Below, piece after piece: positions 765 to 61,830 of a stretch of DNA of 64,000 bases. The notes beneath the pieces were generated by a model. That model saw nothing but the letters and a program-made list of their open reading frames with translations, did not search any database and had not been told where the DNA came from. The position numbers were made by a program, and so were the translations under genes. The stretch spans positions 17,479 to 81,478 of the forward strand of contig JBOGJG010000300.1 in the NCBI GenBank assembly GCA_050747825.1, in the 5' to 3' direction. The DNA comes from Acidobacteriota bacterium. GTDB lineage: Bacteria; Acidobacteriota; UBA6911; RPQK01; JBOGJG01. Within the stretch, counting starts at the first letter, position 1. Every line of letters starts with the position of its first letter.

Positions 765-1036
765 GACCCAGGGACGTTCTCTCGTTTACCGGTTTTCTAG
801 AAACCCAAAAATATGGTAAACGAGTCGTTCATGGCCCCCTTGGGGGTACCTGGAAACGATGAAAATAATGATCGGAGCAGGACCTACAACAGCGGGCCCG
901 CTTCCTCACGGTCGCGGCTCGGTCGAGTGGCATCTGTGATCATATCCGAGCCGCGGCCGTGCACCCCAAGGGTACCAGGCGGGCCCTGATCAACGCCGCT
1001 CCGATTTATTTTCGAGAGAGTAGAGCGTCCCTGGAT
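765..1036. repeat. Nested palindromic (MITE/REP-like) element, family A
   Basis: Outer inverted repeat cccagggacgttctctcg / cgagagagtagagcgtccctgg. Middle IR ggcccccttgggggtacctgg / ccccaagggtaccaggcgggcc. Inner core ctcacggtcgcggctcgg...ccgagccgcggccgtg, which recurs at 8537, 10381, 43061, 50858 and 54632. Confidence 0.55.
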
Positions 1037-8514: not shown

Positions 8515-8536
8515 TGGTTTTTTACCTCAGCAGGGC

Positions 8537-8568
8537 CGCTCCCTCACAGTCGCGGCTCGATTCGGGCC
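8537..8568. repeat. Family A palindromic repeat, half copy
   Basis: gggccgctccctcacagtcgcggctcg in the 54-bp spacer between the PLP-enzyme gene and tctA. Confidence 0.5.
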
Positions 8569-10132: not shown

Positions 10133-11512
10133 TTACCACCCCAGCAGTCCCCTGGGCAGCGGCACCTGTAAAATATTGCCAAAGAGTTGATAAACCGCGG
10201 GAACGAGCAGGACAGTCACGACTGCGCTGACCCACAGCCGGCTTCCCAGCCTCCACAGCAGCAGAAAGGCGATGGCGCTGGAGGTCAAAATGAAACCAAG
10301 GTTTTCAGCAAAGAATACGTACAGGGCGACAGCGAGGATGATGTCGAGGAAGTGCATGAGAGCGGTGAAGCGCACGCGGAGCCGCTCTCTTACAGTCGCG
10401 GCCCGGATAAACGGAGCCGCGACCGTAAGAAAGCGACCCCGCATGAGGCCCATAATTATGAGCGCCGCCAGCAATAGACTAAGAATGACAAAGAGCAGCC
10501 GGGGGAAGTCCATAGGCTGAAAGCGGCTGGAGCGAACGGTGGAAAATTCTTCGCTGGTCAGCAGAGTCCCCAGTTCCTCATCGAAGCGCTTGAGCATCTC
10601 TTGAGATTCCGCCGGCGGACGCCAGGACAGATTGAAGCCCTGGGCCGCCATAAACTGGGGAAAAGTCCTACCGTTCACCCGGCTGGATCCGCTCATGATG
10701 CGCTGCATAACCTCAACCAGCCGATTGAAAATGGTAATGGGTGTCCCCTTGGGGACGCCTAAGCCGCGCCAACCTCCCATCACCCAGTCGATTCCCTGCT
10801 CCCGGAAAGTTGGAACATCCGGAAATAAGCTCAGGCGCGTATCTGACATGACCCCCAGGGAACGGACTACTCCCCCCGAGAGCAAAGTCGTGGCCTCAGG
10901 AAGGCTGCAGGAAACCACATCGATTCCTCCACTGGCGAGTTCCTGAAGCGAGGGGCCGGCGCCGCCCATGGGAATCCAACGGATGTCGCCCGGATCCAAT
11001 CCAGCCGCTTTCAGCGATCCTGCCAGAGCCAGATGCCAGATCCCGCCGGCGGCAGTTCCGGAAGCGGTCAAGGTTCCCGGATTGGCTTGAACATCTTCCA
11101 GCAGCGAAGGGAGATCATTCCAGCGGCTGTCGTCGGACCTGACAAAGATGGCCGCCGGATCTTCGTTGAAGACCATGACCGGCCTAAAGTTCTGCCATGA
11201 GATTTCCGTCAGGTCGCGCCAGTGAAGCATATTGAGTTCCACGGTCATCGTGGTCAGCGTGTAGCCGTCGGCCCTGGCCTGCGCTCCGCGGCTGTGCCCG
11301 GTAACGCCCGCTCCGCCCGTAGCGTTGATAACATTGACGGGCACACCCAGCTCCTGCTCCAGAAAAACCGCAATTTGCCTGGATACCGTATCGGTTCCGC
11401 CGCCCACGGCCCAGGGGCAAATCAACAGAATAGGTCGGCTGGGATACTCATCGTTGGTCTGGCATGCTCCGAGCAGCAGCAAGATAGCTGCCAGTGAGAT
11501 CGATAATCGCAT
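10133..11512 (-). CDS. TctC (Bug-family periplasmic binding protein) fused to a TctB-like 4-TM small subunit
   Basis: The N-terminal 320 aa are lipoprotein-like: LLLLGACQ then PILLICPWAVGGGTDTVSRQIA, a Bug/TctC motif. The C-terminal 140 aa form four hydrophobic helices, as in TctB. The frame is continuous over 459 aa. Confidence 0.7.
   Translation of the reverse strand: MRLSISLAAILLLLGACQTNDEYPSRPILLICPWAVGGGTDTVSRQIAVFLEQELGVPVNVINATGGAGVTGHSRGAQARADGYTLTTMTVELNMLHWRDLTEISWQNFRPVMVFNEDPAAIFVRSDDSRWNDLPSLLEDVQANPGTLTASGTAAGGIWHLALAGSLKAAGLDPGDIRWIPMGGAGPSLQELASGGIDVVSCSLPEATTLLSGGVVRSLGVMSDTRLSLFPDVPTFREQGIDWVMGGWRGLGVPKGTPITIFNRLVEVMQRIMSGSSRVNGRTFPQFMAAQGFNLSWRPPAESQEMLKRFDEELGTLLTSEEFSTVRSSRFQPMDFPRLLFVILSLLLAALIIMGLMRGRFLTVAAPFIRAATVRERLRVRFTALMHFLDIILAVALYVFFAENLGFILTSSAIAFLLLWRLGSRLWVSAVVTVLLVPAVYQLFGNILQVPLPRGLLGW
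10381..10430. repeat. Family A palindromic repeat inserted in-frame in the TctB-like part of tctCB
   Basis: cttacagtcgcggcccggataaacggagccgcgaccgtaag. It encodes ...[18 protein letters not shown].... Confidence 0.55.
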
Positions 11513-11582
11513 TGAGTTTCAAGTTCCAAGTTTCAAGTTCCAAGCTCCAAGTTCCAAGTTGGAACTTGAAACTTGGAACTCG
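11512..11582. repeat. 70-bp near-perfect palindrome built from tandem 7-bp units (caagttc / caagttt)
   Basis: gagtttcaagttccaagtttcaagttccaagctccaagttccaagttggaacttgaaacttggaactc. It lies between the ferritin stop and the tctCB start. Confidence 0.7.
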
Positions 11583-11587
11583 CAAAA

Positions 11588-24139: not shown

Positions 24140-24264
24140 GGATTCGCGCACAGGCCACCTGGATGAGTTGCCCGCGCAGCGCCATGGCAAGGGCCGGCCA
24201 GAGACCGCAGCTACGTCTTGAACGAGCACGTTTGACACATTTCAGTCAAATAGATCTGCCAGGC

Positions 24265-41421: not shown

Positions 41422-42834
41422 ATGTGGTTGATTCTCGTTCTCTGGCTGACTAGTCCAATGCTGGCCTTTCAAAGCTCTGAATTGCCCCAAGTTCCCGATT
41501 TGCCTGTCTTGGGAAAGCAGTTGCCCGAGGCTGTCCGCCAGGAAGTGAACGAGTTGCACGCCAGGGCCCGCAAAAATCCGCAGGACGTGGATACAATCGG
41601 GCCCCTGGCGATGCTCATGCATGCTTACGAGCAATACCAGTTTGCAGAATTCTGTTACCGCCGCGCCCAGGAGCTGCAGCCGGATTCGTTTCAGTGGAGC
41701 TACTATCTGGGTCTCGTGCAGGCGAGACAGGGCGAGCATCAAGAGGCGGCTGATTCTCTGCGCAAGGCGCTCCTGCTGGATCCCAATTACGTTCCCGCCT
41801 GGCTGAAGCTCGTGGGATCCCTTCTCCAACTCGAACAGTTTGAAGAAGCGGCAACGATTTGCCAGGCGATCCTCCGCGAATATCCGCAGGCGGCGGTGGC
41901 CCATTACGGCCTGGGGCGCGTTAAAGCCCAACAGGGGAATCTCGAAGAAGCCGTCAGTCATTATCTGAAGGCCTGCGAGCTGCACCCGGGATTTGGCGCC
42001 TCCCATTACGCCCTGGGGCTCGCCTACCGCGACTTGGGCAATAACGCCAAGGCCCGGGAACACCTCTCTTTGTACCAGCAGAACAAGCTGGGCTGGCCTT
42101 CCGCGGAAGATCCTCTTTGGACCGCAGTCCAGCAGTTGAAGAGCGGCCCACTTCACCATCTGAAGCTGGCCATTGACCTGGCCAATGAGAATCGGCTTGA
42201 GCAATCCATCCGCGAACACCAGAAGGCGCTGGAGCTGGACCCCAACCTGCTGCAGGCCCATGTCAATCTCTCAAACCTTCAGGGCCGACTCGGAAACTGG
42301 AAAGAGGCCGAAAAGCATTACCAGGCGGCGGCAGCAATTAATCCCAATCTGCCGGACCTTCACTATAACTACGGAATCATTCTAGGCGCGCGGGAACGTC
42401 ACGCCGAAGCGGCCGAGGCTTTCCAGAAAGCGCTTGAGATCAATCCGTTCTACGCGGAGGCCCACAACAATCTGGGATCCATGCTGGCCCTGCAGGGCGA
42501 TCTGCACAAGGCGGCCCGCCATTATCGTCAGGCAATCGAAAACAATCCAAATTACCGGCTGGCCCGGTTCAATCTGGGCCGCACGCTGATTGCGCTGGGA
42601 GAGCACCAGGAGGCCATCGACCAGCTCCTGAAGATCCTGACTCCCGAGGATGAGGACACTCCGCGCTTCATGTTTGTCCTGGCGGCAGCTTATGCCCGAT
42701 CCGGGAACGTGGAGAAAGCGCTTTTCTACACGAGAGAAGCCAAGGAGCGAGCGGAAGCGCTGGGGCAGATGGAGCTGGCCGCTTCGGCTGAGGAAGGCCT
42801 GAAGCAACTGGAGCAGGCACGGCGGCCGCAATGA
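41422..42834 (+). CDS. TPR-repeat protein (secreted)
   Basis: Signal peptide plus multiple 34-residue W-LG-Y / A...Y..A repeats. Confidence 0.75.
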
Positions 42835-44630
42835 GACTTCGGGTACTGCTTCTTCTCGCCGTTTTGCCGGCTGTTTTCTCGCCAACCGGCTCGGTTGCCC
42901 ATGAAGTGCCGATTTTCAGAGAGGTGGCGGCTGAGGCCGGCCTGGAGTTTCAGCATTTCAACGGATCAAGCGGTGAGTTTTTTGTGCCCGAGATTATGGG
43001 TCCCGGGGTGGCGCTGTTGGATTACGACGGGGATGGGGATCTGGATGTCTATCTGACTCAGGGCCGCTCCCTCACGGTCGCGGCTCGGATGACGGAGCAG
43101 GAGCGGAAAACGGTGCAGGATCAAAAAACGGCGCTCGAATCCGAGCCGCGACTGTCAGCGAGCGGCCATCGGCTTTTTCGCAATCTGCTGAAGGAGGAAG
43201 GCCGGCTCCGATTCACGGATGTTACCGAAAAGGCCGGCCTGGGACACCAGGGTTACGGCATGGGGGCCGCCGTGGGCGACTACGACAACGACGGCGACCC
43301 AGATTTATACGTGACTAATTTCGGCAGCAATGTCTTGTATCGCAACAACGGAGACGGCACGTTTAGCGATGTCACCCGCGAAGCCGGCGTCGATGACCCG
43401 CGCTGGAGCACCAGCGCAGCTTTTTTAGATTACGACCGCGACGGAGACCTCGACCTTTTCGTCACCAACTACATCAATTTCAGCGTGGCCGCCAATCGGA
43501 CCTGTTACGACCCGGCCGGCGCGCGGGACTACTGCAACCCGTCCGTCTACAGTCCCGTGCCGGACCGACTCTTTCGCAATGAAGGCGCGGGACAGTTCTC
43601 GGAGGCCACCGAAGCGGCCGGGATTACGCTCGCCTATGGGCCCGGCCTGGGAGTCGTCTGCGCCGACTTCAACGCAGACGGATGGACCGACATCTACGTG
43701 GCCAATGACGGCACGGCCAATCTGCTCTGGATCAACCAGGGCAACGGTACCTTCGACGAGCAGGGACTGCTCTCGGGAAGCGCCTACAATGGAAACGGCA
43801 TGGCCGAGGGCAGCATGGGAGTAAGCGCCGGCGATTTCGACAATGACGGCGACGAAGACCTTTTCATGACTCATCTCAATCAGGAGAAGAACACGCTCTA
43901 TCTCAATCGCGGCCAGGGTGTTTTTCACGATGCCAGCCGGGAGTTCGACCTGGCGGCCCCCAGCTTTGCCTACACCGGCTTTGGGACGCAATGGTTCGAT
44001 TTCGACAGCGACGGCTATCTGGATCTTTTCGTGGCCAATGGCGCCGTCACCATCTTGGAGCAGTTGCGTGCACAGCCGTTTCCCTATCATCAAAAGAATC
44101 AGCTCTTCCGAAACCTGGAGGGAAAAGGCTTTCAAGACATCACGGCCGCCGCCGGACTCGCCCTGGAGTTATCTGAAGTCAGCCGCGGCGCCGCCTTTGG
44201 CGACATCGATAATGACGGCGATATCGATATCCTGGTCACAAACAACAACGGACCCGCGCGCCTGCTGCTCAATGAGTCAGCGCAGAAGCACTGGCTGAGC
44301 GTGCGTCTGGAAGGAACCCAGGATAATCGCTTGGGCATCGGCGCTCGCGTCGGCATTCTCCGAAGGTCAGTCAGCAGTCAGCGGTCAGCGGTCAGCGGTC
44401 AGCGGCCGGTCATCTGGCGGCGCGCCCACACCGACGGAAGTTACCTCAGCGCCGGCGATATCCGAGTTCACTTCGGCCTGGGGACGGATGCCGACCTGGA
44501 GGGAGTTGTTGTTCAGTGGCCCAACGGCCAATCTGAAGTGTGGACGGATGTTCAGCCCGATTCATTCCTGACCCTGAAGCAGGGCACGGGGGAAGCTTGG
44601 CCGATGGAGCAGGAGCAGGGGCGGCCATGA
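42831..44630 (+). CDS. CRTAC1-family protein (FG-GAP/VCBS repeats plus C-terminal ASPIC/UnbV domain)
   Basis: Repeated DYDGDGDLD / [12 protein letters not shown] / [11 protein letters not shown] motifs and a C-terminal UnbV_ASPIC-like domain. 4-bp overlap with the upstream TPR gene. Confidence 0.8.
43061..43170. repeat. Family A palindromic repeat (full, about 110 bp) inserted in-frame in a CRTAC1 gene
   Basis: gggccgctccctcacggtcgcggctcggatg....atccgagccgcgactgtcagcgagcggcc. It encodes [35 protein letters not shown], which is absent from the paralog at 44627. Confidence 0.65.
44363..44408. repeat. Tandem 7-bp repeat (gcggtca x3 perfect plus 2 imperfect) inside a CDS
   Basis: gtcagtcagcagtcagcggtcagcggtcagcggtcagcggcc. 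It encodes ...[14 protein letters not shown].... Confidence 0.7.
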
Positions 44631-46300
44631 GGGTTCTTTGGTTCTTTGGTGCCTTGGTTCTTTGGTGCCTTGGCGGTTTAATTCTCACGCTTGCGGCCCA
44701 GGAAGGAGTGGGTCCGGAACTGGCTCCGATCAAGTTTGATGACGTTGCGGCCGAAGCCGGTTTGGATTTCGTTCTGGAGAATAATCCCACGCCTGAAAAG
44801 CACATTATAGAAACCATGCCGGGGGGCTTGGCTGTTTTTGATTATAACGGTGACGGTCTCCCCGACATCTTCTTCACCAATGGCGCCGCGCTGCTCTCCC
44901 TCGAGAAAAGCACCCTCAGGCACTTTAACCGCCTGTATCGGAATGAAGGCGGGATGAAGTTCACCGACCTGACTGAAGCGGCCGGAGTGGCCGGCGCCGG
45001 TTATTCCATGGGCGCCGCCGCCGCCGATTATGACAACGACGGCCACGTCGATCTTTTCGTGGCAGGCGTCTTCCGCAATCTCCTCTATCGAAACAACGGA
45101 GACGGCACATTCGAGGAGCTCAGCGAGCAAGCTGGTATCAAGAGCGATCTTTGGGGCGTTGCCGGCGGCTGGTTCGATTACGACAGGGACGGCCTTTTAG
45201 ATCTTTTTGTCGTCAATTATGCGGAATGGTCCACCAGCTACCAACGCTTTTGCGGGGATCGCGATGAAGGCGTCCGCGTCTACTGCCATCCCAAATACTA
45301 TAACCCGGTACGAAACGCCCTTTACCGCAACCGCGGTGACGGCGGCTTTGAAGACGTGACTCAGAAAGCGGGCATCGCTCCCCACAAGGGAAGAGGCATG
45401 AGCGTGGCCTTTAACGATTACGACGGCGATGGGCTGATCGATGCTTTTGTCACCAATGACAACCTGCCCAATTTCCTATTCCGTAACCAGGGGGACGGCA
45501 GCTTTGAGGAAGTCGCCCTGGTCACGGGTGTGGCCCTGCGCGAGCACGGAAAGCCCGTGGCCAGTATGGGAGTCGATTTCCGGGATTATGACAACGACGG
45601 CAAGCCGGACATCAACGTCACGGCGCTGGCCGGAGAAACCTTCCCGCTCTTCCGCAACCAGGGCGAGTCTTTCTTTCAGGATGCCACGTATTCCAGCCGC
45701 CTGGCCCGGCTCACTATGGGATTCAGCGCCTGGGGCAACGGTTTCTTCGACTTCAACAACGATGGCTGGAAAGATTTATTTACCGCCAACTCGCACGTCA
45801 ATGACTTGATCGAGCTTTTTGAGGCCACCGAGTACAAGCAGCGCAACAGCGTTTTCGCCAACCTGGGGAATGGGACCTTTGAGGACGTCTCGGCTGGGGT
45901 GAGTGAGGAGTTCCAGACGGCCAGAGCCCATCGGGGCAGCGCCTTCGCCGATTTCAACGGCGACGGCAAGATCGATATCGTGGTCACTTCCCTAAGCGAG
46001 CCCACCGAATTGTGGCAGAACATCAGCCCCGAGTCCAACAACTGGGTCATCCTGGACCTGGAAGGTTCGCGCAGCAACCGGGACGGTATCGGCGCGCGGG
46101 TGCGCATCGGCAGTCAATACAACATCATGACCACGGCCGTCGGTTATGCCTCCTCCAGCTACAGCGGCGTGCACTTCGGGCTGGGGGAGACTGCGGTTAT
46201 TGATCGGATCGCGATTCGGTGGCCCAGCGGCACGGTCCAGGTTCTGGAAAATATCGCCGCCAATCAGGTCCTCCACATTCGCGAGCCGGAAAGTCGATGA
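44627..46300 (+). CDS. CRTAC1-family protein paralog (FG-GAP plus ASPIC/UnbV)
   Basis: ATGA overlap with the upstream paralog. Signal peptide, then the same repeat architecture. Confidence 0.8.
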   Translation: MRVLWFFGALVLWCLGGLILTLAAQEGVGPELAPIKFDDVAAEAGLDFVLENNPTPEKHIIETMPGGLAVFDYNGDGLPDIFFTNGAALLSLEKSTLRHFNRLYRNEGGMKFTDLTEAAGVAGAGYSMGAAAADYDNDGHVDLFVAGVFRNLLYRNNGDGTFEELSEQAGIKSDLWGVAGGWFDYDRDGLLDLFVVNYAEWSTSYQRFCGDRDEGVRVYCHPKYYNPVRNALYRNRGDGGFEDVTQKAGIAPHKGRGMSVAFNDYDGDGLIDAFVTNDNLPNFLFRNQGDGSFEEVALVTGVALREHGKPVASMGVDFRDYDNDGKPDINVTALAGETFPLFRNQGESFFQDATYSSRLARLTMGFSAWGNGFFDFNNDGWKDLFTANSHVNDLIELFEATEYKQRNSVFANLGNGTFEDVSAGVSEEFQTARAHRGSAFADFNGDGKIDIVVTSLSEPTELWQNISPESNNWVILDLEGSRSNRDGIGARVRIGSQYNIMTTAVGYASSSYSGVHFGLGETAVIDRIAIRWPSGTVQVLENIAANQVLHIREPESR

Positions 46301-47127: not shown

Positions 47128-47190
47128 GGCCACGGATGACACGGATTTCCCTGATTTGAATCTGCGTCAATCCGTGAAATCCGTGGCTCT
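47128..47190. repeat. Family B palindromic repeat
   Basis: gggccacggatgacacggattt...caatccgtgaaatccgtggctc. Confidence 0.55.
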
Positions 47191-47201
47191 CACTTACAAG
47201 A

Positions 47202-50200
47202 TCAGAAGGTCAGCTTGAATCCGAAGCGGATGTAGCGCTCGGGCGCGTTGTTGCTGGTGCTGCTGATCACGAAGAAGTTGCTGGAAGTCACGCTGCCGTT
47301 CGGATTATTGAAGTGGGGCGTATTGGTCAGGTTAAAAAACTCCGAGCGGAATTCCAGACCGACGGCCTCGGTGATTTCGAAGTGGCGAAACACCGAAAAG
47401 TCGAGATTGACCCAGGTGGGTCCGCGCAGAATGTTGCGACCCGAATTGCCGTAACAATCCAGATGAGTGCAGTCCTCACCCGGAACCCGGTTCACGGGAG
47501 CGAAGGCCTCACGATCGTAGTAGGGATTGCCGCGACCGATACCGCCCAGAGTCTTCACCTCCGCCTTGACCTGATCGGCGGTCTGGACGTTTTCCCGCGC
47601 GTTCAGCGGACCGCCGGAGCTTACCCTGAACGGTCTGTTCTCATTGACCGAGAAGATTCCGTTGACCTGCCAGCCCCGGATCAAGTGGTGGGCAAAGGAG
47701 TCGCCGCTCCGGCCGAAAGGCAGTTCATAGACGGTCGCCAGCTGCAGCATGTGCGGAATGTTGTAGCCGGCCTGCGCACGGTTTCGATCAAGGATGGCCG
47801 GATCGTTCCAGAGCAGCCCTCCCCAGCCGTCCTCGTCAGTCATGCTGATGGCTTTCGAATAGGTGTAGGCGCCTTTGACGAAGAGACCATCGGTAAACCG
47901 CCGGTTGATCGCCACCTGAAGGGAGTGATAGTTGGCGCTCAACCAGCCGTCCCAAAAGAGGATGTCATTGGTATAGGGAAAAAGCTGGCGGCCTTGATTT
48001 CCACCCCCGGGCAGGGAATAGTTCAGATTCCGGTCAGCCAGCTGGTGAACCGTCTGTGTGCCGACGTAGCCGGCCGAAATCACGAAGTCCTGAGGCAGCT
48101 TCCGCTCGTAGACCATGTTCCAGGACTGGATGTAGCCGCGATGGATCTTGTCGGGAGGCATGGTCCTTTGCGCCGCAAAGGTGGGCAAGGGGAGTCTTGT
48201 GCCCTGGTCGGTACTCGGCCCGATGAAAATCGGGATGCCCTCTTCCAGAGTTCTGAAGGGAAGAAAACTTTTATCCCCTTCAAAGTTCGCTACGAAGGTG
48301 AGGGGATAGAAACCCCGCAGCGGGCGCGCAAACGGCAAGGGGTCGAAGGTAATGCCGTACCCGCTGCGCAGGACGTCTTTGTCGGTCAAACGATAGGCGA
48401 ATCCGACTCGAGGCGCAAAAAGATTCTTGCTGATCTCGATGTCGTTGTCCAGGATCACTTCCAGGGTATTCACATCCATGAATTCCAGAGGACGGTCATC
48501 GCGCGAGACCAGTGGATAAAGCTCATAACGCAAGCCCAGATTCAGGGTCAGTTTGGGCGTGACCTGCCAGCGATCCCGCAAATACAAGGCATGCTGCCAC
48601 TCGTTGGCGGTCATGAGCTCCCACTGCAGGTTCTTGCCCATCTCTCGAGGCAGGCCCAGCATGAAAGCAGCCCAGGCATTCTGTTCGGTGGCGGCCACGT
48701 CGTCTCCGATCAGATCCGTCATACCGCCGCTAAAACGAATTCTCCCTCGCGGTCCGTTTCCTCCGATTTCCGGCTGCCAGTGGTCGAGCATGTGCTTGAC
48801 CAGGTCATAGCCCCATCTCACTTCATGGTTATCCTTGGTCCAACTGAAGCTGTGGGTAAACGTCAGGCTGTTCTCATCGCGGAAAATGGGGGTCCATCCA
48901 TCCAACTGGCCGAAACTGTTAAAGCCGGAGACGTCGAAGCGCGGGATGCCCCCGCAGCGGTTGAAGCCTTCCACGATACAGGCCTGCTCCTGTCCCGGAG
49001 CGGCATTGGCGCCCGGGAAGCCCAACACGTCTTGAGCAAAGTTTCCAAGATCGATATCGGCGCTCAAAACTTGCTGATCCATATCGGTGAAACCGAGATT
49101 CCCGTCGATCAAAAAGGTGGGCGACAGGGTCAGGGTGTGCCCGATGCCCCAAACCCTGACATCGGTCAAGCCCACACCGTCACCGCCGCCTCCGATAGCT
49201 CCGCCGCCGCCTTGCTTCCCAAACCTGGAATTCTTGGCTACCTCTGCATCCAGCCAGCTAAACTTCCCCCAAATGCTATGCTGCTGGCTACGGTACCAGT
49301 CCATTTTGATATCGATATTGTGACGGTCCATGGCTTCCGTACCCGAAACCCCGTAGTTGTCATCGATGCCGGACAAATTGGGAAGGGGGAGAAAGCCGGC
49401 CATTTTGACGGCAGGCGGACTGAGGCGGTCCTCGGGGATGATATTGTTGGGGAAGGGCTCTCGGCCGGTCGCGTCCGGATTGCCGGTTAGCGGGTCATAA
49501 ATAATCGTCTCATCGAAGCCGTTGGGGTTGCCGGGCAGAAAGGCGCTAAAGTCGCCCCGGCGTTGATCCGCAGTCGCAACATCCAACAGGTCCGTCTTGG
49601 GCAGGCGCTGAAAAGTTCCTTCCCAGCCCCCGAAGAAGAACAGCTTGTCCTTCATAATGGGGCCGCCCACCGTGAAACCATCGATGTTGCGGTTGCCGCC
49701 TGGCTTATCCGCTTTGCCGTCGCCATCCGTATCCGCCAGATTGAAGAAATCCCGGGCGTTGAGGGCGCTGTTTTCATGATAGCCGAAGGCGGAGCCGTGA
49801 AGCTCATTCGTCCCCGACTTGGTCACGACGGTAACGGCCGCACCACCGGCGAAACCCGTTTCGGCATCAAAGTTATTGGTCGAGATGTTGACGACCTCGA
49901 TGGTCTCAGCAGGAGGCACGTAAGCCGTATGGTGAGGTAGCCAGATGTTCACGCTCTGGGCGCCGTCGATGCGCGTGTTGTTGTTGTTGCGGGCCGTCCC
50001 GTTGATGTTGTGGGTCAGCGCCCGTCCCGGCGTATCAGTGATGGCGTTCTGAAACCTTCCCGGCGTGGCGCCCGGGACCAGGTTGATCAGAGCCTGATAG
50101 TTGCGATATTGATTCAGCGGCAGGTCGCTGATCTCCTTGCTTTCCAACTGAACGTGAACGTCACTGGTTTCGGTCTGCAGGACGGTGGCCGCTCCGGAAA

Positions 50201-50570
50201 CGGTGATCACTTCCGTCAACTGGCCCACTTCAAGGACGACGTTTCTGCGCGTGATGCTTCCAACCGTGACCGCCACGTTGTCGTCCACAAACTCCTTAAA
50301 ACCGGGCAGCGTCACTTTCAGAGTATAAGTACCTTTAGGAATATTGCGGATGAGGTACACACCGGCCTCATCGGTGATGCCCGTCTGCGCGAAATTCGTG
50401 GCGGGATTGACCACGGAAACGTCGGCGCCCGGCACGGCGGCGCCGCTGGAATCGGACACATTGCCCGTCAGTGAGCCGTAGAGGACTTGAGCTTGCGCTC
50501 TGTCCTGAATCATGAAAGTGCACAGCCCGATCAGTCCGATCAGGCAACCAAGTCGCCTCAGGTTTAGCAT
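47202..50570 (-). CDS. TonB-dependent-receptor-like outer-membrane protein with N-terminal carboxypeptidase-regulatory-like domain (Acidobacteria-type, 1122 aa)
   Basis: Signal peptide then AQVLYGSLTGNVSDSSGAAVPGADVSVVNPATNFAQTGITDEAGVYLIRNIPKGTYTLKVTLPGFKEF (CarboxypepD_reg). A plug-like segment, a long beta-barrel and a C-terminal ...YIRFGFKLTF. Confidence 0.8.
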   Translation of the reverse strand: MLNLRRLGCLIGLIGLCTFMIQDRAQAQVLYGSLTGNVSDSSGAAVPGADVSVVNPATNFAQTGITDEAGVYLIRNIPKGTYTLKVTLPGFKEFVDDNVAVTVGSITRRNVVLEVGQLTEVITVSGAATVLQTETSDVHVQLESKEISDLPLNQYRNYQALINLVPGATPGRFQNAITDTPGRALTHNINGTARNNNNTRIDGAQSVNIWLPHHTAYVPPAETIEVVNISTNNFDAETGFAGGAAVTVVTKSGTNELHGSAFGYHENSALNARDFFNLADTDGDGKADKPGGNRNIDGFTVGGPIMKDKLFFFGGWEGTFQRLPKTDLLDVATADQRRGDFSAFLPGNPNGFDETIIYDPLTGNPDATGREPFPNNIIPEDRLSPPAVKMAGFLPLPNLSGIDDNYGVSGTEAMDRHNIDIKMDWYRSQQHSIWGKFSWLDAEVAKNSRFGKQGGGGAIGGGGDGVGLTDVRVWGIGHTLTLSPTFLIDGNLGFTDMDQQVLSADIDLGNFAQDVLGFPGANAAPGQEQACIVEGFNRCGGIPRFDVSGFNSFGQLDGWTPIFRDENSLTFTHSFSWTKDNHEVRWGYDLVKHMLDHWQPEIGGNGPRGRIRFSGGMTDLIGDDVAATEQNAWAAFMLGLPREMGKNLQWELMTANEWQHALYLRDRWQVTPKLTLNLGLRYELYPLVSRDDRPLEFMDVNTLEVILDNDIEISKNLFAPRVGFAYRLTDKDVLRSGYGITFDPLPFARPLRGFYPLTFVANFEGDKSFLPFRTLEEGIPIFIGPSTDQGTRLPLPTFAAQRTMPPDKIHRGYIQSWNMVYERKLPQDFVISAGYVGTQTVHQLADRNLNYSLPGGGNQGRQLFPYTNDILFWDGWLSANYHSLQVAINRRFTDGLFVKGAYTYSKAISMTDEDGWGGLLWNDPAILDRNRAQAGYNIPHMLQLATVYELPFGRSGDSFAHHLIRGWQVNGIFSVNENRPFRVSSGGPLNARENVQTADQVKAEVKTLGGIGRGNPYYDREAFAPVNRVPGEDCTHLDCYGNSGRNILRGPTWVNLDFSVFRHFEITEAVGLEFRSEFFNLTNTPHFNNPNGSVTSSNFFVISSTSNNAPERYIRFGFKLTF

Positions 50571-50857
50571 AATGTTACCTCTTCCTCATGAAAGGTGTTC
50601 CAAGCAAAAATTTAAACGATTGTAAAGCCGCTGATTTTAAGCAAAAACTGCACCTGTCGCTGGATTTGGCGAAGACTCGGAGGGCAGCCAGACGCTTAAA
50701 TTGTTCCAATTAAATGGATTAACAATCCAAAAAATATTTCACAGCTTCGAAAATAAGGAGTTGATAGTTCCCGGTATGTCCAAATAATTGGACAATTAAG
50801 GGTCTTGGTTCCAGCTTTTTGGACTTGGAGAGCATGAGAGGTGATTAGCGAGAATGG

Positions 50858-50912
50858 AGACGGCCAATCCGAGCTGCGACCGTGCACCCAAAGGGTACCT
50901 GGCGGGGCGGCC
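50858..50912. repeat. Family A repeat (inner arm plus middle arm)
   Basis: atccgagctgcgaccgtgcacccaaagggtacctggcggggcggcc, which matches 940-990. Confidence 0.5.
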
Positions 50913-50982: not shown

Positions 50983-53900
50983 TCAGAAGGTCAGTTTGAA
51001 TCCGAAGCGGATGTAGCGCTCCAGCGCGTTGTTACTGGTGCTGGTGATGTCGAAGAAGTTGTTGGAGTTTACGCTGCTGGTCGGATTGCTGAAGTGCGGC
51101 GTATTGGTCAGATTAAAGAATTCGGAGCGGAACTCCAGCCCCACATCCTCGGTGAGTTGGAAGCTGCGGAAGAGGGAGAAATCCAGGTTAACCCAAGTGG
51201 GGCCGCGCAGGATGTTGCGCCCGGCGTTTCCGAAGCAGTCCAGACCACTGCAGCTCGTACCCGGCACGCGAGTCACGGGCGCAAACGCTGTCCTGTCGTA
51301 GTACGGGTTGCCCCGGCCAACTCCGCCCAGGGTCGCCACTTCATCCTTCACCTGATCCGCAGTCTGAGTGTTGTTCCTGGAGTTATGCGGACCGCCGGAA
51401 GTCACCGTAAAAGGCTCGTTTTCGTTCACCGAGAAAATTCCGTTGACCTGCCAGCCCCGGAGTACGTGGTGGCCAATTGAGTCACCGCCGCGGCCGAAAG
51501 GCAGCTCATAAACGGTGGCCAACTGCAGCATGTGCGGCCGGTTGTAACCGGCTTGAGCGCGGTTGCGTTGAATCTGGGCAGGATCGTTCCAGCCCAGGCC
51601 GGCCCACCCGTCGTCATCGGTCATGTTGAGTGCCCTTTGATAAGTATAGGCTCCTTTCACAAAGAGACCGCCCGTAAAGCGGCGGTTGACCGCCACCTGC
51701 AGGGAGTGGTAGTTGGAGCTCAGAAAACCGTTCCAGAACAGGATGTTGTTGGTGAACGGGAAAAGCTGCCGTCCGGTGTTTCCACCACCGGCCGGCGACC
51801 AGTTCAGATTGTGGTCGGCCAACTGGTGGACGGTCTGGGTTCCGACATAACCGGCGGAGACCACAAAGTCCTGGGGAAGCTTGCGCTCATAGACGAGGTT
51901 CCAGGACTGGATGTAACCCCGGTCAATCCGGTCCGGGGGCATTGTCCTCTGCTGAACGAAGGTCGGCAGGGGGATGCGAGTCCCCGGGCTGGTGCCGGGC
52001 CCCGTGAAGATAGGAATCCCCTCTTCAAGAGACCTGAAAGGAATGGAGGAGTTGTCTGCGGAGAAGTTACCCGCGATGGTCAGCGGGTAAAAACCGCGCA
52101 AAGGCCGCGCAAACGGGAGCGGGTCGAAGGTGATTCCGTAGCCGCTGCGAAGAACGTCATCGTCAGTCAAGCGGTAAGCGAAGCCGACGCGCGGAGCGAA
52201 CAGACTCTTGCTGATCTTGATATCGTTGTCCAGCACCAGCTCCATGGTGTTCAGATCCATGAACTCCATGGGCCGATCATCCCGCGTGACCAGCGGATAA
52301 AGCTCATAACGCAGGCCCAGGTTCAGTGTCAGCTTGGGGGTCACCTGCCAGCGGTCGCGCAGATAAAAAGCGTGTTGCCACTCGTTGGCGGTCATCAGCT
52401 CCCACTGCAGGCTCTTGCCTATACTATTGGGGAGTCCGAGCATGAAGGAAGCCCAGGAATTCTGGTTCGTGGTAGCCGCTCCTCCGATCAGAGCCGTCAT
52501 ACCCCCACTAAAGCGAAACCTGCCGCGGGGGCCGTCTCCAATCTCGGGCTGCCAGTGATCGAGCATGTGCTTGACCAGATCATAACCCCATCTCACTTCG
52601 TGATTGCTCCTGGTCCAGCTAAAGCTGTGGGTGAAGGTGAGACTGTTTTCATCCCGGAATAACGGGCTCCAGCCGTCCAACTGCCCAAAAGTGGTAAAAC
52701 CGGACACATCAAAGCGGGGTACGCCGCCACAGCGGTTGATCCCGTCCACAATACAGGCCTGTTCCTGGCCTGGTCCGGCGTTGGCGCCGGGGAACCCCAG
52801 GACATCCTGGCCAAAGTTGCCCAGCTCGATGTCGGCCGTCAGCACTTCCTGGTCCATGTCAGTGAAGCCCAAGCTTCCATCCACCAGAAAGGTGGGAGAC
52901 AACGTCAACGTGTGGCCGATACCCCACACCCGGACGTCAGTCAGCCCTCGACCATCACCGCCGCCGCCGATGGCGCCGCCGCCGCCCTGCACCCCGAAAC
53001 GAGGACTTTTCGCAACCTCAGCATCCATCCAACTGAACTTGCCCCAGATGCTGTGCTGCTCATTCCGGTACCAGTCGAGCTTGGCGTCGATATTGTGGCG
53101 GTCCATGGCTTCCGTGCCCGAAACGCCATAGTTGGAAGTGACTCCGCCTAAATTGGGAAGAGGCAGAAAACCTGCCATCCTCACCGCGGCCGGACTCAGG
53201 CGATCTTGCGGGATGACATTGTTGGCGAAAGGCTCCCTGTCCGTCCCGTCGGGATTGCCGGTGGTGGGATCATAAATAATGGTCTCACGATTGCCCGCCG
53301 CATTGCCCGGCAGGAAGGCGCTGAAGTCGCCGGCCCGCTGATCGGCGCTGGCTACCGTCAAAGTATCCGTCTTGGGCAGGCGCTGGAAAGTGCCTTCCCA
53401 GCCGCCGAAGAAGAACAACTTATCCTGCCTGATCGGACCGCCGATGGTAAAGCCGTCGATGTTGCGGTTGCCGCCCGGCTTGTCGGCCTTGCCGTCCCCG
53501 TCCGTGTCGGCATGATTGAAGAAATCTCGGGCATTGAGGGCGCTGTTCTCATGGTAGCCGAAGGCCGAACCATGAAGCTCGTTGGTTCCTGACTTGGTCA
53601 CCACCGTGATCGCCGCGCCGCCTGCAAAGCCCGTCTCGGCGTCGAAGTTGTTAGTCGAAATGTTGACCACTTCGATCGTCTCCGCCGGAGGCACATAAGC
53701 CGTGTGGTGGGGCAACCAGATGTTGACGCTCTGGGCGCCGTCGATGCGCGTATTGTTGTTATTGCGAGCGGTGCCGTTGACATTAGTCGATAGTGCGCGA
53801 CCCGGCGTGTCCGTGATCGCGTTCTGGAACTCGGCAGGAGTGGCGCCCGGAACCAGGTTAAGCAGCGCTTGATAGTTTCGATACTGGTTCAAAGGCAGGT

Positions 53901-54348
53901 CGCTGATCTCCTTGCTTTCCAACTGAACGTGAACGTCACTGGTTTCGGTCTGCAGGACGGTGGCCGCTCCGGAAACGGTGATCGCCTCGGTCAACTCACC
54001 CACCTCCAGTCGAACGTCCCGGCGGGTGATGCTTCCAACCGTCACCGCCACGTTGTCGTCCACAAATTCTTTAAAACCGGGCAGCGTCACTTTCAGCGTA
54101 TAAGTACCTTTAGGAATATTGCGGATAAGGTACACACCGGTTTCATCAGTCACACCGGCCTGAGTGAAGTTAGTGGCTGGATTGACCACCGATACATCAG
54201 CGCCCGGCACTGCAGCGCCGCTGGCGTCTGCCACGTTACCTGTCAAAGACCCGTACAGGACCTGCGCCTGAGTGTCAGTGGCCGTAACGGCCACTGACAT
54301 AATCAAAGCCAGGCCAAAGATACGCCAGCTCTTGAATAAACTTGTCAT
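50983..54348 (-). CDS. TonB-dependent-receptor-like OMP paralog (CarboxypepD_reg plus barrel)
   Basis: About 85% aa identity to the upstream paralog across the full length. The start is taken at MTSLFKSWRIFGLALIMSVAVTA (signal peptide). Confidence 0.8.
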   Translation of the reverse strand: MTSLFKSWRIFGLALIMSVAVTATDTQAQVLYGSLTGNVADASGAAVPGADVSVVNPATNFTQAGVTDETGVYLIRNIPKGTYTLKVTLPGFKEFVDDNVAVTVGSITRRDVRLEVGELTEAITVSGAATVLQTETSDVHVQLESKEISDLPLNQYRNYQALLNLVPGATPAEFQNAITDTPGRALSTNVNGTARNNNNTRIDGAQSVNIWLPHHTAYVPPAETIEVVNISTNNFDAETGFAGGAAITVVTKSGTNELHGSAFGYHENSALNARDFFNHADTDGDGKADKPGGNRNIDGFTIGGPIRQDKLFFFGGWEGTFQRLPKTDTLTVASADQRAGDFSAFLPGNAAGNRETIIYDPTTGNPDGTDREPFANNVIPQDRLSPAAVRMAGFLPLPNLGGVTSNYGVSGTEAMDRHNIDAKLDWYRNEQHSIWGKFSWMDAEVAKSPRFGVQGGGGAIGGGGDGRGLTDVRVWGIGHTLTLSPTFLVDGSLGFTDMDQEVLTADIELGNFGQDVLGFPGANAGPGQEQACIVDGINRCGGVPRFDVSGFTTFGQLDGWSPLFRDENSLTFTHSFSWTRSNHEVRWGYDLVKHMLDHWQPEIGDGPRGRFRFSGGMTALIGGAATTNQNSWASFMLGLPNSIGKSLQWELMTANEWQHAFYLRDRWQVTPKLTLNLGLRYELYPLVTRDDRPMEFMDLNTMELVLDNDIKISKSLFAPRVGFAYRLTDDDVLRSGYGITFDPLPFARPLRGFYPLTIAGNFSADNSSIPFRSLEEGIPIFTGPGTSPGTRIPLPTFVQQRTMPPDRIDRGYIQSWNLVYERKLPQDFVVSAGYVGTQTVHQLADHNLNWSPAGGGNTGRQLFPFTNNILFWNGFLSSNYHSLQVAVNRRFTGGLFVKGAYTYQRALNMTDDDGWAGLGWNDPAQIQRNRAQAGYNRPHMLQLATVYELPFGRGGDSIGHHVLRGWQVNGIFSVNENEPFTVTSGGPHNSRNNTQTADQVKDEVATLGGVGRGNPYYDRTAFAPVTRVPGTSCSGLDCFGNAGRNILRGPTWVNLDFSLFRSFQLTEDVGLEFRSEFFNLTNTPHFSNPTSSVNSNNFFDITSTSNNALERYIRFGFKLTF

Positions 54349-54631
54349 AAACTCCCTCCTCGACAATTCAAGTTGTTCAAATCGAATTACAAAATAAGCC
54401 GCGGGTGGTAAGGCACCCGGAGACGATATATGCAATCTCAGTACCTATTCTTTGGAGAGCTCGCTGAGTCGCGCTGGTTTAACGGTAAAGCTCCAAGAGT
54501 GCCGCCGTTTTTCGCCTGAGTCTCCCGATGAGCCAAGGGACGTGCGCTTGTCCAAAATTCCGAACTTTGCGCTTCTGGAATACAGGTTTTTGAACTTGAA
54601 TAAGAGACTAATAGGTGAACGGCGATGACCC

Positions 54632-54685
54632 GGGGGCGCGCTCCTTTATAGTCGCGGCTCTGTTTGGATGGGGCCCATCCTCTCC
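54632..54685. repeat. Family A repeat, half copy
   Basis: gggggcgcgctcctttatagtcgcggctctgtttggatggggccc. Confidence 0.45.
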
Positions 54686-56177: not shown

Positions 56178-56222
56178 GATGTCGGGTGGGATTTTTTCCC
56201 GGCGTTTCCACTAAGCTGAGCC

Positions 56223-56250
56223 CCGGATTACACGGATTACGCGGATTTAA
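56223..56250. repeat. Family B repeat, partial
   Basis: ccggattacacggattacgcggattt. Confidence 0.4.
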
Positions 56251-57050: not shown

Positions 57051-58043
57051 TTGACAATACACCGACGTATATTGAGCCACGGATTTCACGGATTGATGCT
57101 GCTTATTCTATGTCATCCGTGTAATCCGTGGCCCACTCAGGTCTCAGGTCAGCCCTCACAACAGCCATTTCCCATTTCGGTGGACGTTGATCTGACGCTC
57201 CTCTATGTCTCCGTAGAGGATGACGAGGGCGATTTCGTAGGCGGCTTGTCCCGCCAGGACTTCCAGGTTTTTGAAGATGGCCGGTCTTGCGAGATCAAGA
57301 TTTTTAGAGAAGGAGACGTTCCCCTTACCTGGGGTCTGGTGGTGGATAAAAGCGCCAGCATGATGAATAAGTACCAGGAAGTTTTTGGCGCCTCACTCCA
57401 GTTCGCTCAAACTCGCAAGCCAGAAGACCAGTTTTTTGTCGTGAGTTTCAATGACCGTGTTTACATGAGTCTCTCGGAGCAGGATCCCTTCTTGAGGAAT
57501 ATGGTGGACCTGAGACGGGCTCTTATTGAAGTCTCAATGACAGGACAAACGGCTCTTTATGACGCGCTGGTTACGGCTCTCGAGCAGCTTGAACGGGGCA
57601 AACACCTCAAGAAAGCTCTGATTGCCATCAGCGACGGCGGTGATAATGCCAGCCGCCACAGCTTCGATCAGGTGCTGGAGATGGCCCGAGCCTCCGAAGC
57701 GATCATCTACACGGTGGGAATTTACAATTCGGCTAACCGGGACCGCAACCCGGATATTTTGAAGCAGTTGGCCGGCGAGACCGGAGGATTTGCCGCCTTT
57801 CCAGGCCGCACAAGCCGCCTGGAAGAAGTGGCCCAGGAAATTGCCCAGAACCTGCGCAGACAGTACGTGATCGGCTATGTCCCGCTGCCGGCCCCCGACC
57901 AGATGAAATACCGGAAGGTCAGAGTAGAAGTCGAGGATGAGGGTCTTACCGTGAGAACGCGCAGCGGCTACTACTTGGCCACGGATTACACGGTTGACAC
58001 GGAACTACCAGCCTGTGGTAAAAGTCCTGAGGGGTCGTGTTAG
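57051..58043 (+). CDS. VWA-domain protein (Acidobacteria VWA family usually paired with GWxTD proteins)
   Basis: ...FPISVDVDLTLLYVSVEDDEGDFVGGLSRQDFQVFEDG..C.I..F.... LVVDKSASM is the MIDAS DxSxS motif. The first 28 codons are encoded by a family B repeat. Confidence 0.7.
   Translation: MTIHRRILSHGFHGLMLLILCHPCNPWPTQVSGQPSQQPFPISVDVDLTLLYVSVEDDEGDFVGGLSRQDFQVFEDGRSCEIKIFREGDVPLTWGLVVDKSASMMNKYQEVFGASLQFAQTRKPEDQFFVVSFNDRVYMSLSEQDPFLRNMVDLRRALIEVSMTGQTALYDALVTALEQLERGKHLKKALIAISDGGDNASRHSFDQVLEMARASEAIIYTVGIYNSANRDRNPDILKQLAGETGGFAAFPGRTSRLEEVAQEIAQNLRRQYVIGYVPLPAPDQMKYRKVRVEVEDEGLTVRTRSGYYLATDYTVDTELPACGKSPEGSC
57074..57133. repeat. Family B palindromic repeat overlapping the 5' end of the VWA gene
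   Basis: gagccacggatttcacggattgatgctgcttattctatgtcatccgtgtaatccgtggccc. Confidence 0.55.
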
Positions 58044-58095
58044 ACGACTCCACTTCCCTGGCGCACGGCCCCTCAGGACTTTTACCACAGGCTGC
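58007..58095. terminator. 28-bp-arm perfect palindrome between the convergent VWA and GWxTD genes
   Basis: cctgtggtaaaagtcctgaggggtcgtg ... cacggcccctcaggacttttaccacagg. The left arm encodes the VWA C-terminus ...PACGKSPEGSC. Confidence 0.55.
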
Positions 58096-58102
58096 TAAAG
58101 AA

Positions 58103-61769: not shown

Positions 61770-61830
61770 AGCCACGGATTCCACGGATTGGCACAGATTC
61801 AATCAGAGAAATCCGCGCAATCCGTGGCTG
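61770..61830. repeat. Family B palindromic repeat
   Basis: cagccacggattccacggattggcacagattcaatcagagaaatccgcgcaatccgtggctg. Confidence 0.55.

Follow-up and report, generated by a model that had tools for sequence, protein, structure and literature searches.

Interspersed 25-nt hairpin repeats in an Acidobacteriota genome correspond to the REP units associated with class 3 TnpA_Y1 transposases

The canonical REP/RAYT systems of E. coli and Pseudomonas (class 2) consist of short hairpins with an unpaired 5' tetranucleotide, dispersed in hundreds of copies as singlets and inverted doublets, and of a single-copy Y1 HUH gene that is flanked by such repeats. In IS200/IS605 elements such as IS608 and ISDra2, a Y1 HUH transposase with a Y....Q-type tyrosine motif acts on imperfect subterminal hairpins with a guide tetranucleotide, and no target duplication is produced. 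The repeat family described here and its transposase share these properties with both groups. Nicking and joining of hairpins is established biochemically for TnpA_REP of E. coli and TnpA of IS608 (Quentin et al. 2018, BMC Genomics 19:475, PMC6006769). The same paper describes 'atypical REP' structures that flank class 3 TnpA_Y1 genes, a group for which it gives 24 sequences and, as hosts, Acidobacteria, Planctomycetes and Legionella/Proteobacteria; S. usitatus is stated to have about 600 copies. In its Table S1 the unit of L. pneumophila is CCGAGCCGCGACCGTAAGGGAGCGGA and that of S. usitatus CAGAGCCGCGACCGTTAGGGAGCG..., with the drawn structure .....((((..((....))..)))). (Quentin et al. 2018). 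Class 3 TnpA_Y1 is an HUH single-tyrosine family between IS200/IS605 TnpA and the RAYTs. Palindromes that reside within genes are known as well, namely the RPEs of Rickettsia and the GTAG/CGTC REPs of Opitutus terrae and R. conorii, of which doublets lie in frame in coding genes, so that the protein gains 20-30 residues and is not destroyed (Di Nocera et al. 2013, PMC3733652).

The DNA analyzed here is a stretch of 64 kb (the window) from a metagenome-assembled genome (MAG). It has a G+C content of 57%, and its genes are in keeping with the Acidobacteriota label that it carries, with carboxypeptidase-regulatory-domain TonB receptors, CRTAC1/ASPIC-UnbV proteins, PSCyt1 and a fused TctC-TctB. 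The stretch is also present in MAG GCA_975374895.1 (CDIKIH010000012.1) and in the Logan assembly of SRR27067772. The original prediction, made from the letters of the window, was that a family of palindromes recurs at six places or more, both between and within genes, and that it is REP-like with a cognate tyrosine transposase, or MITE-like. The recurrence was confirmed and the REP-like reading with a tyrosine transposase supported, but not a MITE in its classical DDE sense. The 18-nt core CTCACGGTCGCGGCTCGG, with three mismatches or fewer, is present at all six places and matches 8 times in the 64-kb window against 0.12 expected in shuffles, and none of 100 shuffled windows had 8 or more matches. 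A profile made from the arms gave 9 units, all at the six places, and a covariance model (CM) run over every position and both strands of the window detected 7 canonical units (E 2e-8 to 3e-5) and 2 further half-matching variants, with no additional units. The density is thus 9 units per 64 kb, or about one per 7 kb. The definition of the repeat had to be changed: the unit is only 25 nt long, has sharp borders and is itself a hairpin. Since single units fold weakly (-3 to -7 kcal/mol, no better than shuffles) and inverted doublets strongly (z between -5 and -6), the earlier 'palindromes' are pairs of inverted units.

The unit with the exact core match (CCGAGCCGCGACCGTGAGGAAGCGG, 898-922, minus strand; CM match at 893-926, 41.4 bits, E 1.5e-7) is the centre of a large palindrome and can be folded into a foot followed by 4 bp, a GA.AG mismatch, 2 bp and a GTGA loop. 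With the variant unit at 944-983 (plus strand, CM E 0.27), in which the foot CCGA and GCCGCGGCCGTG are followed by GCACCCCAAGGGTACCAGGCGGG, it forms an inverted doublet. A single unit at 8536-8560 (minus strand, 36.3 bits, E 2e-6) occupies the 54-nt intergenic spacer from the stop codon of TctA (8569) to the start of a Cys/Met-metabolism PLP enzyme (8514), both genes being on the minus strand. The other variant, at 50867-50906 (plus strand, CM E 3.8), is a REP 5' half continued by GCACCCAAAGGGTACCTGGCGGG and lies between two tandem genes for TonB-dependent outer-membrane proteins. A single decayed unit at 54638-54662 (CAGAGCCGCGACTATAAAGGAGCGC, minus strand, 34.7 bits, E 5e-6) is located in the spacer between two divergent genes, one for an outer-membrane protein and the other for a TPR protein. 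The tandem TonB-dependent receptor paralogues of this region (47205-50585 and 50986-54444) are about 80% identical at the DNA level. The remaining units, found by profile and CM, are two doublets inside genes: 10382-10406 (minus) with 10412-10436 (plus), and 43064-43088 (minus) with 43141-43165 (plus). The two variants are 90% identical to each other over 40 nt; both have the REP 5' half only, followed by a common unrelated 24 nt, and among all genome loci fetched the 40-nt variant was not found outside this organism. The units in the window deviate from the consensus CCGAGCCGCGACCGTNAGGGAGCGG at 0-6 of 25 positions, which fits a decaying population and makes it plausible that the family is old here. 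The copies may be immobile too.

This consensus comes from an alignment of 174 copies from other genomes, which shows 25 conserved bases with sharp edges and flanks that are random except for A/T at -1 and -2; the degree of conservation in this set is overstated because it was partly selected through an exact 19-mer. Read on its own (foot) strand, the unit is CnGA-GCCGC-GA-CC-GTNA-GG-GA-GCGG, i.e. an unpaired 5' foot CnGA, a stem GCCGC/GCGGC, a tandem G.A/A.G mismatch that separates it from the inner stem CC/GG, and a loop GTNA. In the canonical window units the foot is CCGA, CGGA or CAGA in 5 of 7 cases and mutated in the others (TCGA at 8560, CCGG at 10406); in the partly 19-mer-selected set from other genomes, 172 of 174 units have a C..GA foot. 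Pairing was examined in a less biased collection of 107 distinct units, taken from the window and from loci found by a protein motif instead of a DNA motif. Here 93% of the pair cells are paired, and double compensatory changes were counted in 22 cells versus 2.3 in shuffles, a number reached in none of 500 shuffles; when the partner columns were slid, pairing dropped to 34-47%. The tandem G.A mismatches are near-invariant (109 and 105 of 116 units). Of 219 units in other genomes 112, or about half, are single, and the doublets comprise 30 with the feet outward, 7 with the feet inward and 21 in tandem. The feet-outward type, which is thus the commonest, has the same geometry as the flanks of the transposase gene discussed below, whereas both intragenic doublets of the window are of the rarer feet-inward type. 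Some loci (L042, L050, L052, L047 and others) contain arrays, with a repeat distance of about 66-87 nt, in which the canonical unit takes turns with a sister unit, CCGAGCCGCGCGCGTNAGCAAGCGG; the latter has the canonical foot and outer stem, but in its inner stem C-G is exchanged for G-C. In the gammaproteobacterial MAG SMAG_U13833 (L009, L034, L045, L069) the REP unit lies within a larger conserved element with about 40 nt of common upstream sequence (...TGTTATACACCATCTTTTATCAGATTCATGTGACG...), which suggests a lineage-specific composite repeat.

Judged by its sequence, the window unit is the published class 3 TnpA_Y1-associated REP. It has the hairpin published for that class (4-5 bp, a 2-nt internal mismatch, 2 bp and a 4-nt loop), and in what Quentin et al. 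(2018) give on class 3 the 25-nt sequence, the CnGA foot and the host phyla are the same, a high copy number is probably shared as well, and nothing essential is different. The exact 19-mer CCTCACGGTCGCGGCTCGG is present in more than 120 stretches of a collection of species-representative genomes. The 80 matches listed include 42 from Acidobacteriota (mostly Bryobacterales/Solibacter), 24 from Planctomycetota and 6 from Legionellales or other Gammaproteobacteria, among them the isolate Legionella shakespearei; a few of the listed MAGs are labelled Chloroflexota, Armatimonadota, Bacteroidota or Sumerlaeota. This range agrees with the class 3 hosts named by Quentin et al. (2018). A BLAST search of the unit against plasmids gave one match, on a replicon of Legionella adelaidensis with no transposase nearby, and no transposase was present at the Legionella loci L013 and L024. 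Clustering of the ORFs at the genome loci showed that the repeats have unrelated housekeeping genes next to them, with only large superfamilies recurring. A full-text literature search with the DNA core itself returned no match. Since the family is already in the literature, its novelty is low, and the repeats of the window are an ordinary instance of a known, little-studied REP family with partly decayed copies.

Neither the 64-kb window nor the 120 repeat-bearing genome loci contained a RAYT/TnpA gene that could be found with a motif regular expression or with phmmer using E. coli RayT. Therefore, JGI metagenomes were scanned with the back-translated class 3 protein motifs NHVH...YV[VI]xEQ. 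This yielded 103 loci. In 76 of them the gap is exactly 171 nt long, and their products belong to a single conserved family with a length of about 164 aa, LLAAHVR[ST]NHVH...RKRWARHGSTRWLW...YV[VI]xEQGEPMA. The REP unit proved to be physically linked to the ends of this tnpA. In the 75 loci that could be oriented, 87 of 108 REP matches are within about 100 nt of the gene ends; just upstream of tnpA, 38 of 46 matches are on the gene strand, and just downstream 34 of 41 are on the opposite strand. An upstream unit was seen in 30 of the 46 loci with full flanks, a downstream unit in 24 and both in 19, and further loci of this group have more diverged copies that are visible by eye. A clean example is L228, on a 216-kb contig of GCA_025352795.1, where the upstream unit comes to within 3 nt of the start codon and the inverted unit follows the stop at a distance of 10 nt. 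The published flanking of class 3 genes is thereby reproduced.

On the basis of motif, profile and predicted fold, the class 3 protein is a Y1 HUH transposase. It passes the Pfam Y1_Tnp model with 29-34 bits (cut-off 23) and fails both the RAYT equivalog model NF047646 (25-38 bits, cut-off 80) and the IS200 model NF033573 (27-31 bits, cut-off 55). A sequence profile search against the PDB gave no hits. In a fold search with the predicted model (pLDDT 79) the best 29 matches were all Y1 HUH transposases, at the top 4ER8 (the E. coli RAYT bound to REP), IS200, IS608 and ISDra2 TnpA, 4ER8 being the best. Class 3 transposases form 2,634 clusters at 90% identity (E <= 1e-10), and are thus common in environmental DNA; the class 3 motif gave no hits in viral contigs. 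Most clusters are represented on contigs of 0.6-2.5 kb, as would be expected if flanking repeats break metagenome assemblies. These proteins carry the JGI label 'REP element-mobilizing transposase RayT' but do not reach the RAYT cut-off.

Several properties separate the class 3 system from its better-known relatives. Its foot is CnGA instead of the GT[AG]G of canonical REPs, no GTAG or GTGG adjoins the stem in the present units, and the conserved tandem G.A mismatch of the stem is unlike canonical REPs, as are the low scores of the transposase on the RAYT model. The end hairpins of IS200/IS605 elements are on the same strand, whereas the hairpins flanking class 3 genes are inverted to each other; moreover, no tnpB was present in the examples examined, and the hairpins are amplified far beyond the copy number of the gene. 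With the elements of Di Nocera et al. (2013) the window shares in-frame intragenic doublets, of which it has two cases, but its repeats belong to an unrelated sequence family and have a foot other than GTAG or CGTC.

We consider it very likely that the repeats are REP-like hairpins of a class 3 TnpA_Y1 system and that the dispersed units are non-autonomous derivatives moved in trans. The autonomous form would be unit(+)-tnpA-unit(-), with a length of about 565 bp, and the dispersed singles and inverted doublets would most likely derive from it. The transposase could bind the single-stranded hairpin, with the tetranucleotide of the foot setting the position of cleavage, and units or doublets could be nicked and rejoined in trans as single-stranded hairpins, so that they are moved or copied. 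Such a single-strand mechanism would leave no target duplication, and copies would persist where they are harmless, either between genes or, with the reading frame kept open, in protein loops that tolerate changes of length. That the transposase moves the units is suggested by analogy with the related systems and by the association with tnpA, since the only second assembly of the organism (L002) has copies identical to those of the window and shows neither presence/absence polymorphism nor an empty site. Points that count against this reading are the absence of a class 3 tnpA from the window and the 120 loci, the weak folding of single units and the feet-inward arrangement of the window doublets.

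A classical MITE, i.e. a deletion derivative of a cut-and-paste DDE insertion sequence that moves in double-stranded form by means of its terminal inverted repeats, could account for the inverted doublets with short spacers at 10382-10436 and 43064-43165, for the 30 outward-facing doublets of other genomes and for the resemblance of the nested palindrome to long inverted repeats. It is very improbable, though, in view of the 112 of 219 units that are single, of a unit that is a 25-nt hairpin instead of a pair of terminal inverted repeats, and of flanks in which matches of 2-5 nt, examined at nine offsets, occur at the permutation level, so that no target-site duplication was detected. In addition, the sole gene that is consistently flanked encodes a Y1 HUH transposase, and no DDE transposase recurs beside the repeats. 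A motif that is selected by the host for a structural or regulatory role (a terminator, an mRNA stabilizer or a site for a nucleoid or replication protein) and that is not, or no longer, mobile also deserves attention, as the units are intergenic at four of the six places, at two of these (8536 and 50867) just past a stop codon, the near-invariant tandem G.A mismatch would suit a protein-recognition site, and E. coli REPs are reported to have such secondary roles (Quentin et al. 2018). We regard it as improbable as the main explanation. The whole window gave no hits to Rfam structured RNA families at the gathering score, a promoter and terminator scan of positions 700-1200 gave nothing, and there is no terminator-like T-tract at the element. 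Units occur on either strand relative to the neighbouring genes, in a divergent promoter spacer and in coding sequence, and the 25-mer is found in several phyla beside unrelated genes. A host motif alone would also leave the tight link to the ends of tnpA unexplained, whereas a secondary use of units by the host is compatible with hairpins of a class 3 transposase.

The G+C content of the window and its origin from a MAG might raise the suspicion of a chance G+C-rich word or an assembly artefact. Such an origin is hardly conceivable, given the enrichment over shuffled windows, the same copies in L002, and the occurrence of the unit in cultured Legionella genomes and in published complete genomes (Quentin et al. 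2018). It is equally hard to believe that the repeats encode a conserved peptide motif shared by proteins (LTVAAR or SEPRxSxSG), even though there is in-frame translation at two places and such peptides occur in database ORFs extended upstream of tnpA: most copies are intergenic, copies are present on both strands, the translated copies read as different peptides in TctB and CRTAC1, and in homologues of both host proteins the peptides are missing and the position is taken by a loop of variable length.

In both genes that carry a doublet the reading frame is open across it. The doublet at 10382-10436 (dG -24.3, z -5.9) is inside the fused TctC-TctB gene (10133-11512, minus strand) and encodes RFLTVAAP and RAATVRER as part of 24 residues in the loop between TM1 and TM2, the length of which varies widely among 50 homologues. 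The doublet at 43064-43165 (dG -36, z -5.2), with a 52-nt spacer, is inside a CRTAC1/ASPIC-UnbV gene (42831-44627, plus strand) and encodes RSLTVAAR... and SEPRLSASG; it maps to a variable loop, which exceeds that of 60 homologues by 11 aa and differs from theirs in sequence. The nearest homologues of the two host genes are 63-65% identical. The CRTAC1/ASPIC-UnbV gene has a tandem paralogue at 44537-46297, and only one of the two has a REP doublet; it also includes a translated short tandem repeat of GTCAGCG units at 44360-44404. The translated insertions in TctB and CRTAC1 are a warning for annotators, and the family explains odd peptides, e.g. SEPRxSxSG, in predicted proteins of Acidobacteria and Planctomycetes.

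A larger structure is the nested palindrome at 768-1035, built round the doublet 898-922/944-983. As DNA this 268-bp palindrome has a dG of -74.3 kcal/mol (z -8.1). A nested hairpin had been predicted at 765-1036 with three concentric arm pairs; the hairpin is real and the arm pairs are four (768-780/1022-1035, 861-878/998-1013, 894-901/979-986 and 907-922/946-961). The view that it is a 270-bp copy of the family did not survive, because in a blastn search with the 270-bp element only the 26-nt core at 898-923 recurs elsewhere. No further copies of the outer arms were found outside this organism in all loci fetched, and these arms are local sequence that is not part of the family. The palindrome is located between a fragment of a DUF362 gene and one of PSCyt1. 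The DUF362 frame extends to profile position 61 of 200 and ends at 742, about 25 nt before the palindrome, and the remainder of the gene is absent downstream; any role of the repeat element in this truncation would be conjectural. The remnants at 362-742 and 1148-2736 are N-terminal fragments of DUF362 (61 of 200 profile positions) and PSCyt1 (113 aa) and, in the latter interval, fragments of PSD1 (144 aa) and DUF1501 (114 aa), of which the normal proteins would be several times longer; since all four are fragments, this is a decayed region.

The two halves of the unit behave differently. At the genome loci the 5' half alone (foot and left stem) is present in about 42 copies versus 1 in a reversed-sequence control, whereas the 3' half alone, with 16 copies versus 29 in the control, is at chance level. 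One to four tandem 5' half-units, with a period of 13-20 nt, directly precede a full unit at a minimum of 11 loci in three phyla (L004, L006, L010, L014, L030, L033, L042, L053, L062, L090 and L092), and at L153 an array of 5' half-units is situated upstream of tnpA. This asymmetry hints at the footprint of a break-and-join point at the tip of the hairpin. Processing at the tip is proposed because of the half-unit arrays and the two window variants, which have the 5' half only. REPIN-RAYT pairs are vertically inherited and species-specific, and Quentin et al. (2018) describe canonical REPs as species-specific, whereas the class 3 hairpin is near-invariant across phyla, which would imply either that it has spread horizontally more than once or that the code by which protein and DNA recognize each other is unusually rigid. 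It can be envisaged that class 3 maintains its REP population in a third manner, distinct from the others, with a hairpin that hardly changes between phyla and DNA that is broken and joined at the hairpin tip; we find this rather doubtful, and offer it only tentatively.

The apparent mystery repeat is thus ordinary genome furniture. To our knowledge, the class 3 system has so far been described in one paragraph and one supplementary table. It is a convenient case for learning how HUH transposases read a hairpin and a guide sequence. In-frame intragenic copies, the 40-nt variant and the 268-bp palindrome round a doublet are points that we did not find in the class 3 description of Quentin et al. 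(2018), nor did we find there the tandem 5' half-unit arrays or the matches in MAGs that are assigned to four other phyla; the transposase clusters number about 2,600 as compared to its 24 sequences. These observations are incremental, and those on in-frame copies, half-unit arrays, phylum breadth and transposase abundance will mainly be of use to HUH transposase specialists.

The window also has a second, unrelated interspersed repeat with the core GCCACGGATTNCACGGATT, for which 12 matches (three mismatches or fewer) were found against 0.07 expected, at 24263, 41345, 47129-47187, 56220-56247, 57076-57132, 57978-57996 and 61771-61828. Its copies are often inverted pairs in intergenic spacers, and it is probably another REP-like family. 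Next to one of the copies, at 58006-58097, there is a 34-nt inverted repeat that is 94% complementary and has a 24-nt loop. Just upstream of the tctC-tctB start, at 11515-11585, three tandem 14-nt units (AGTTTCAAGTTCCA) are followed by an inverted copy.
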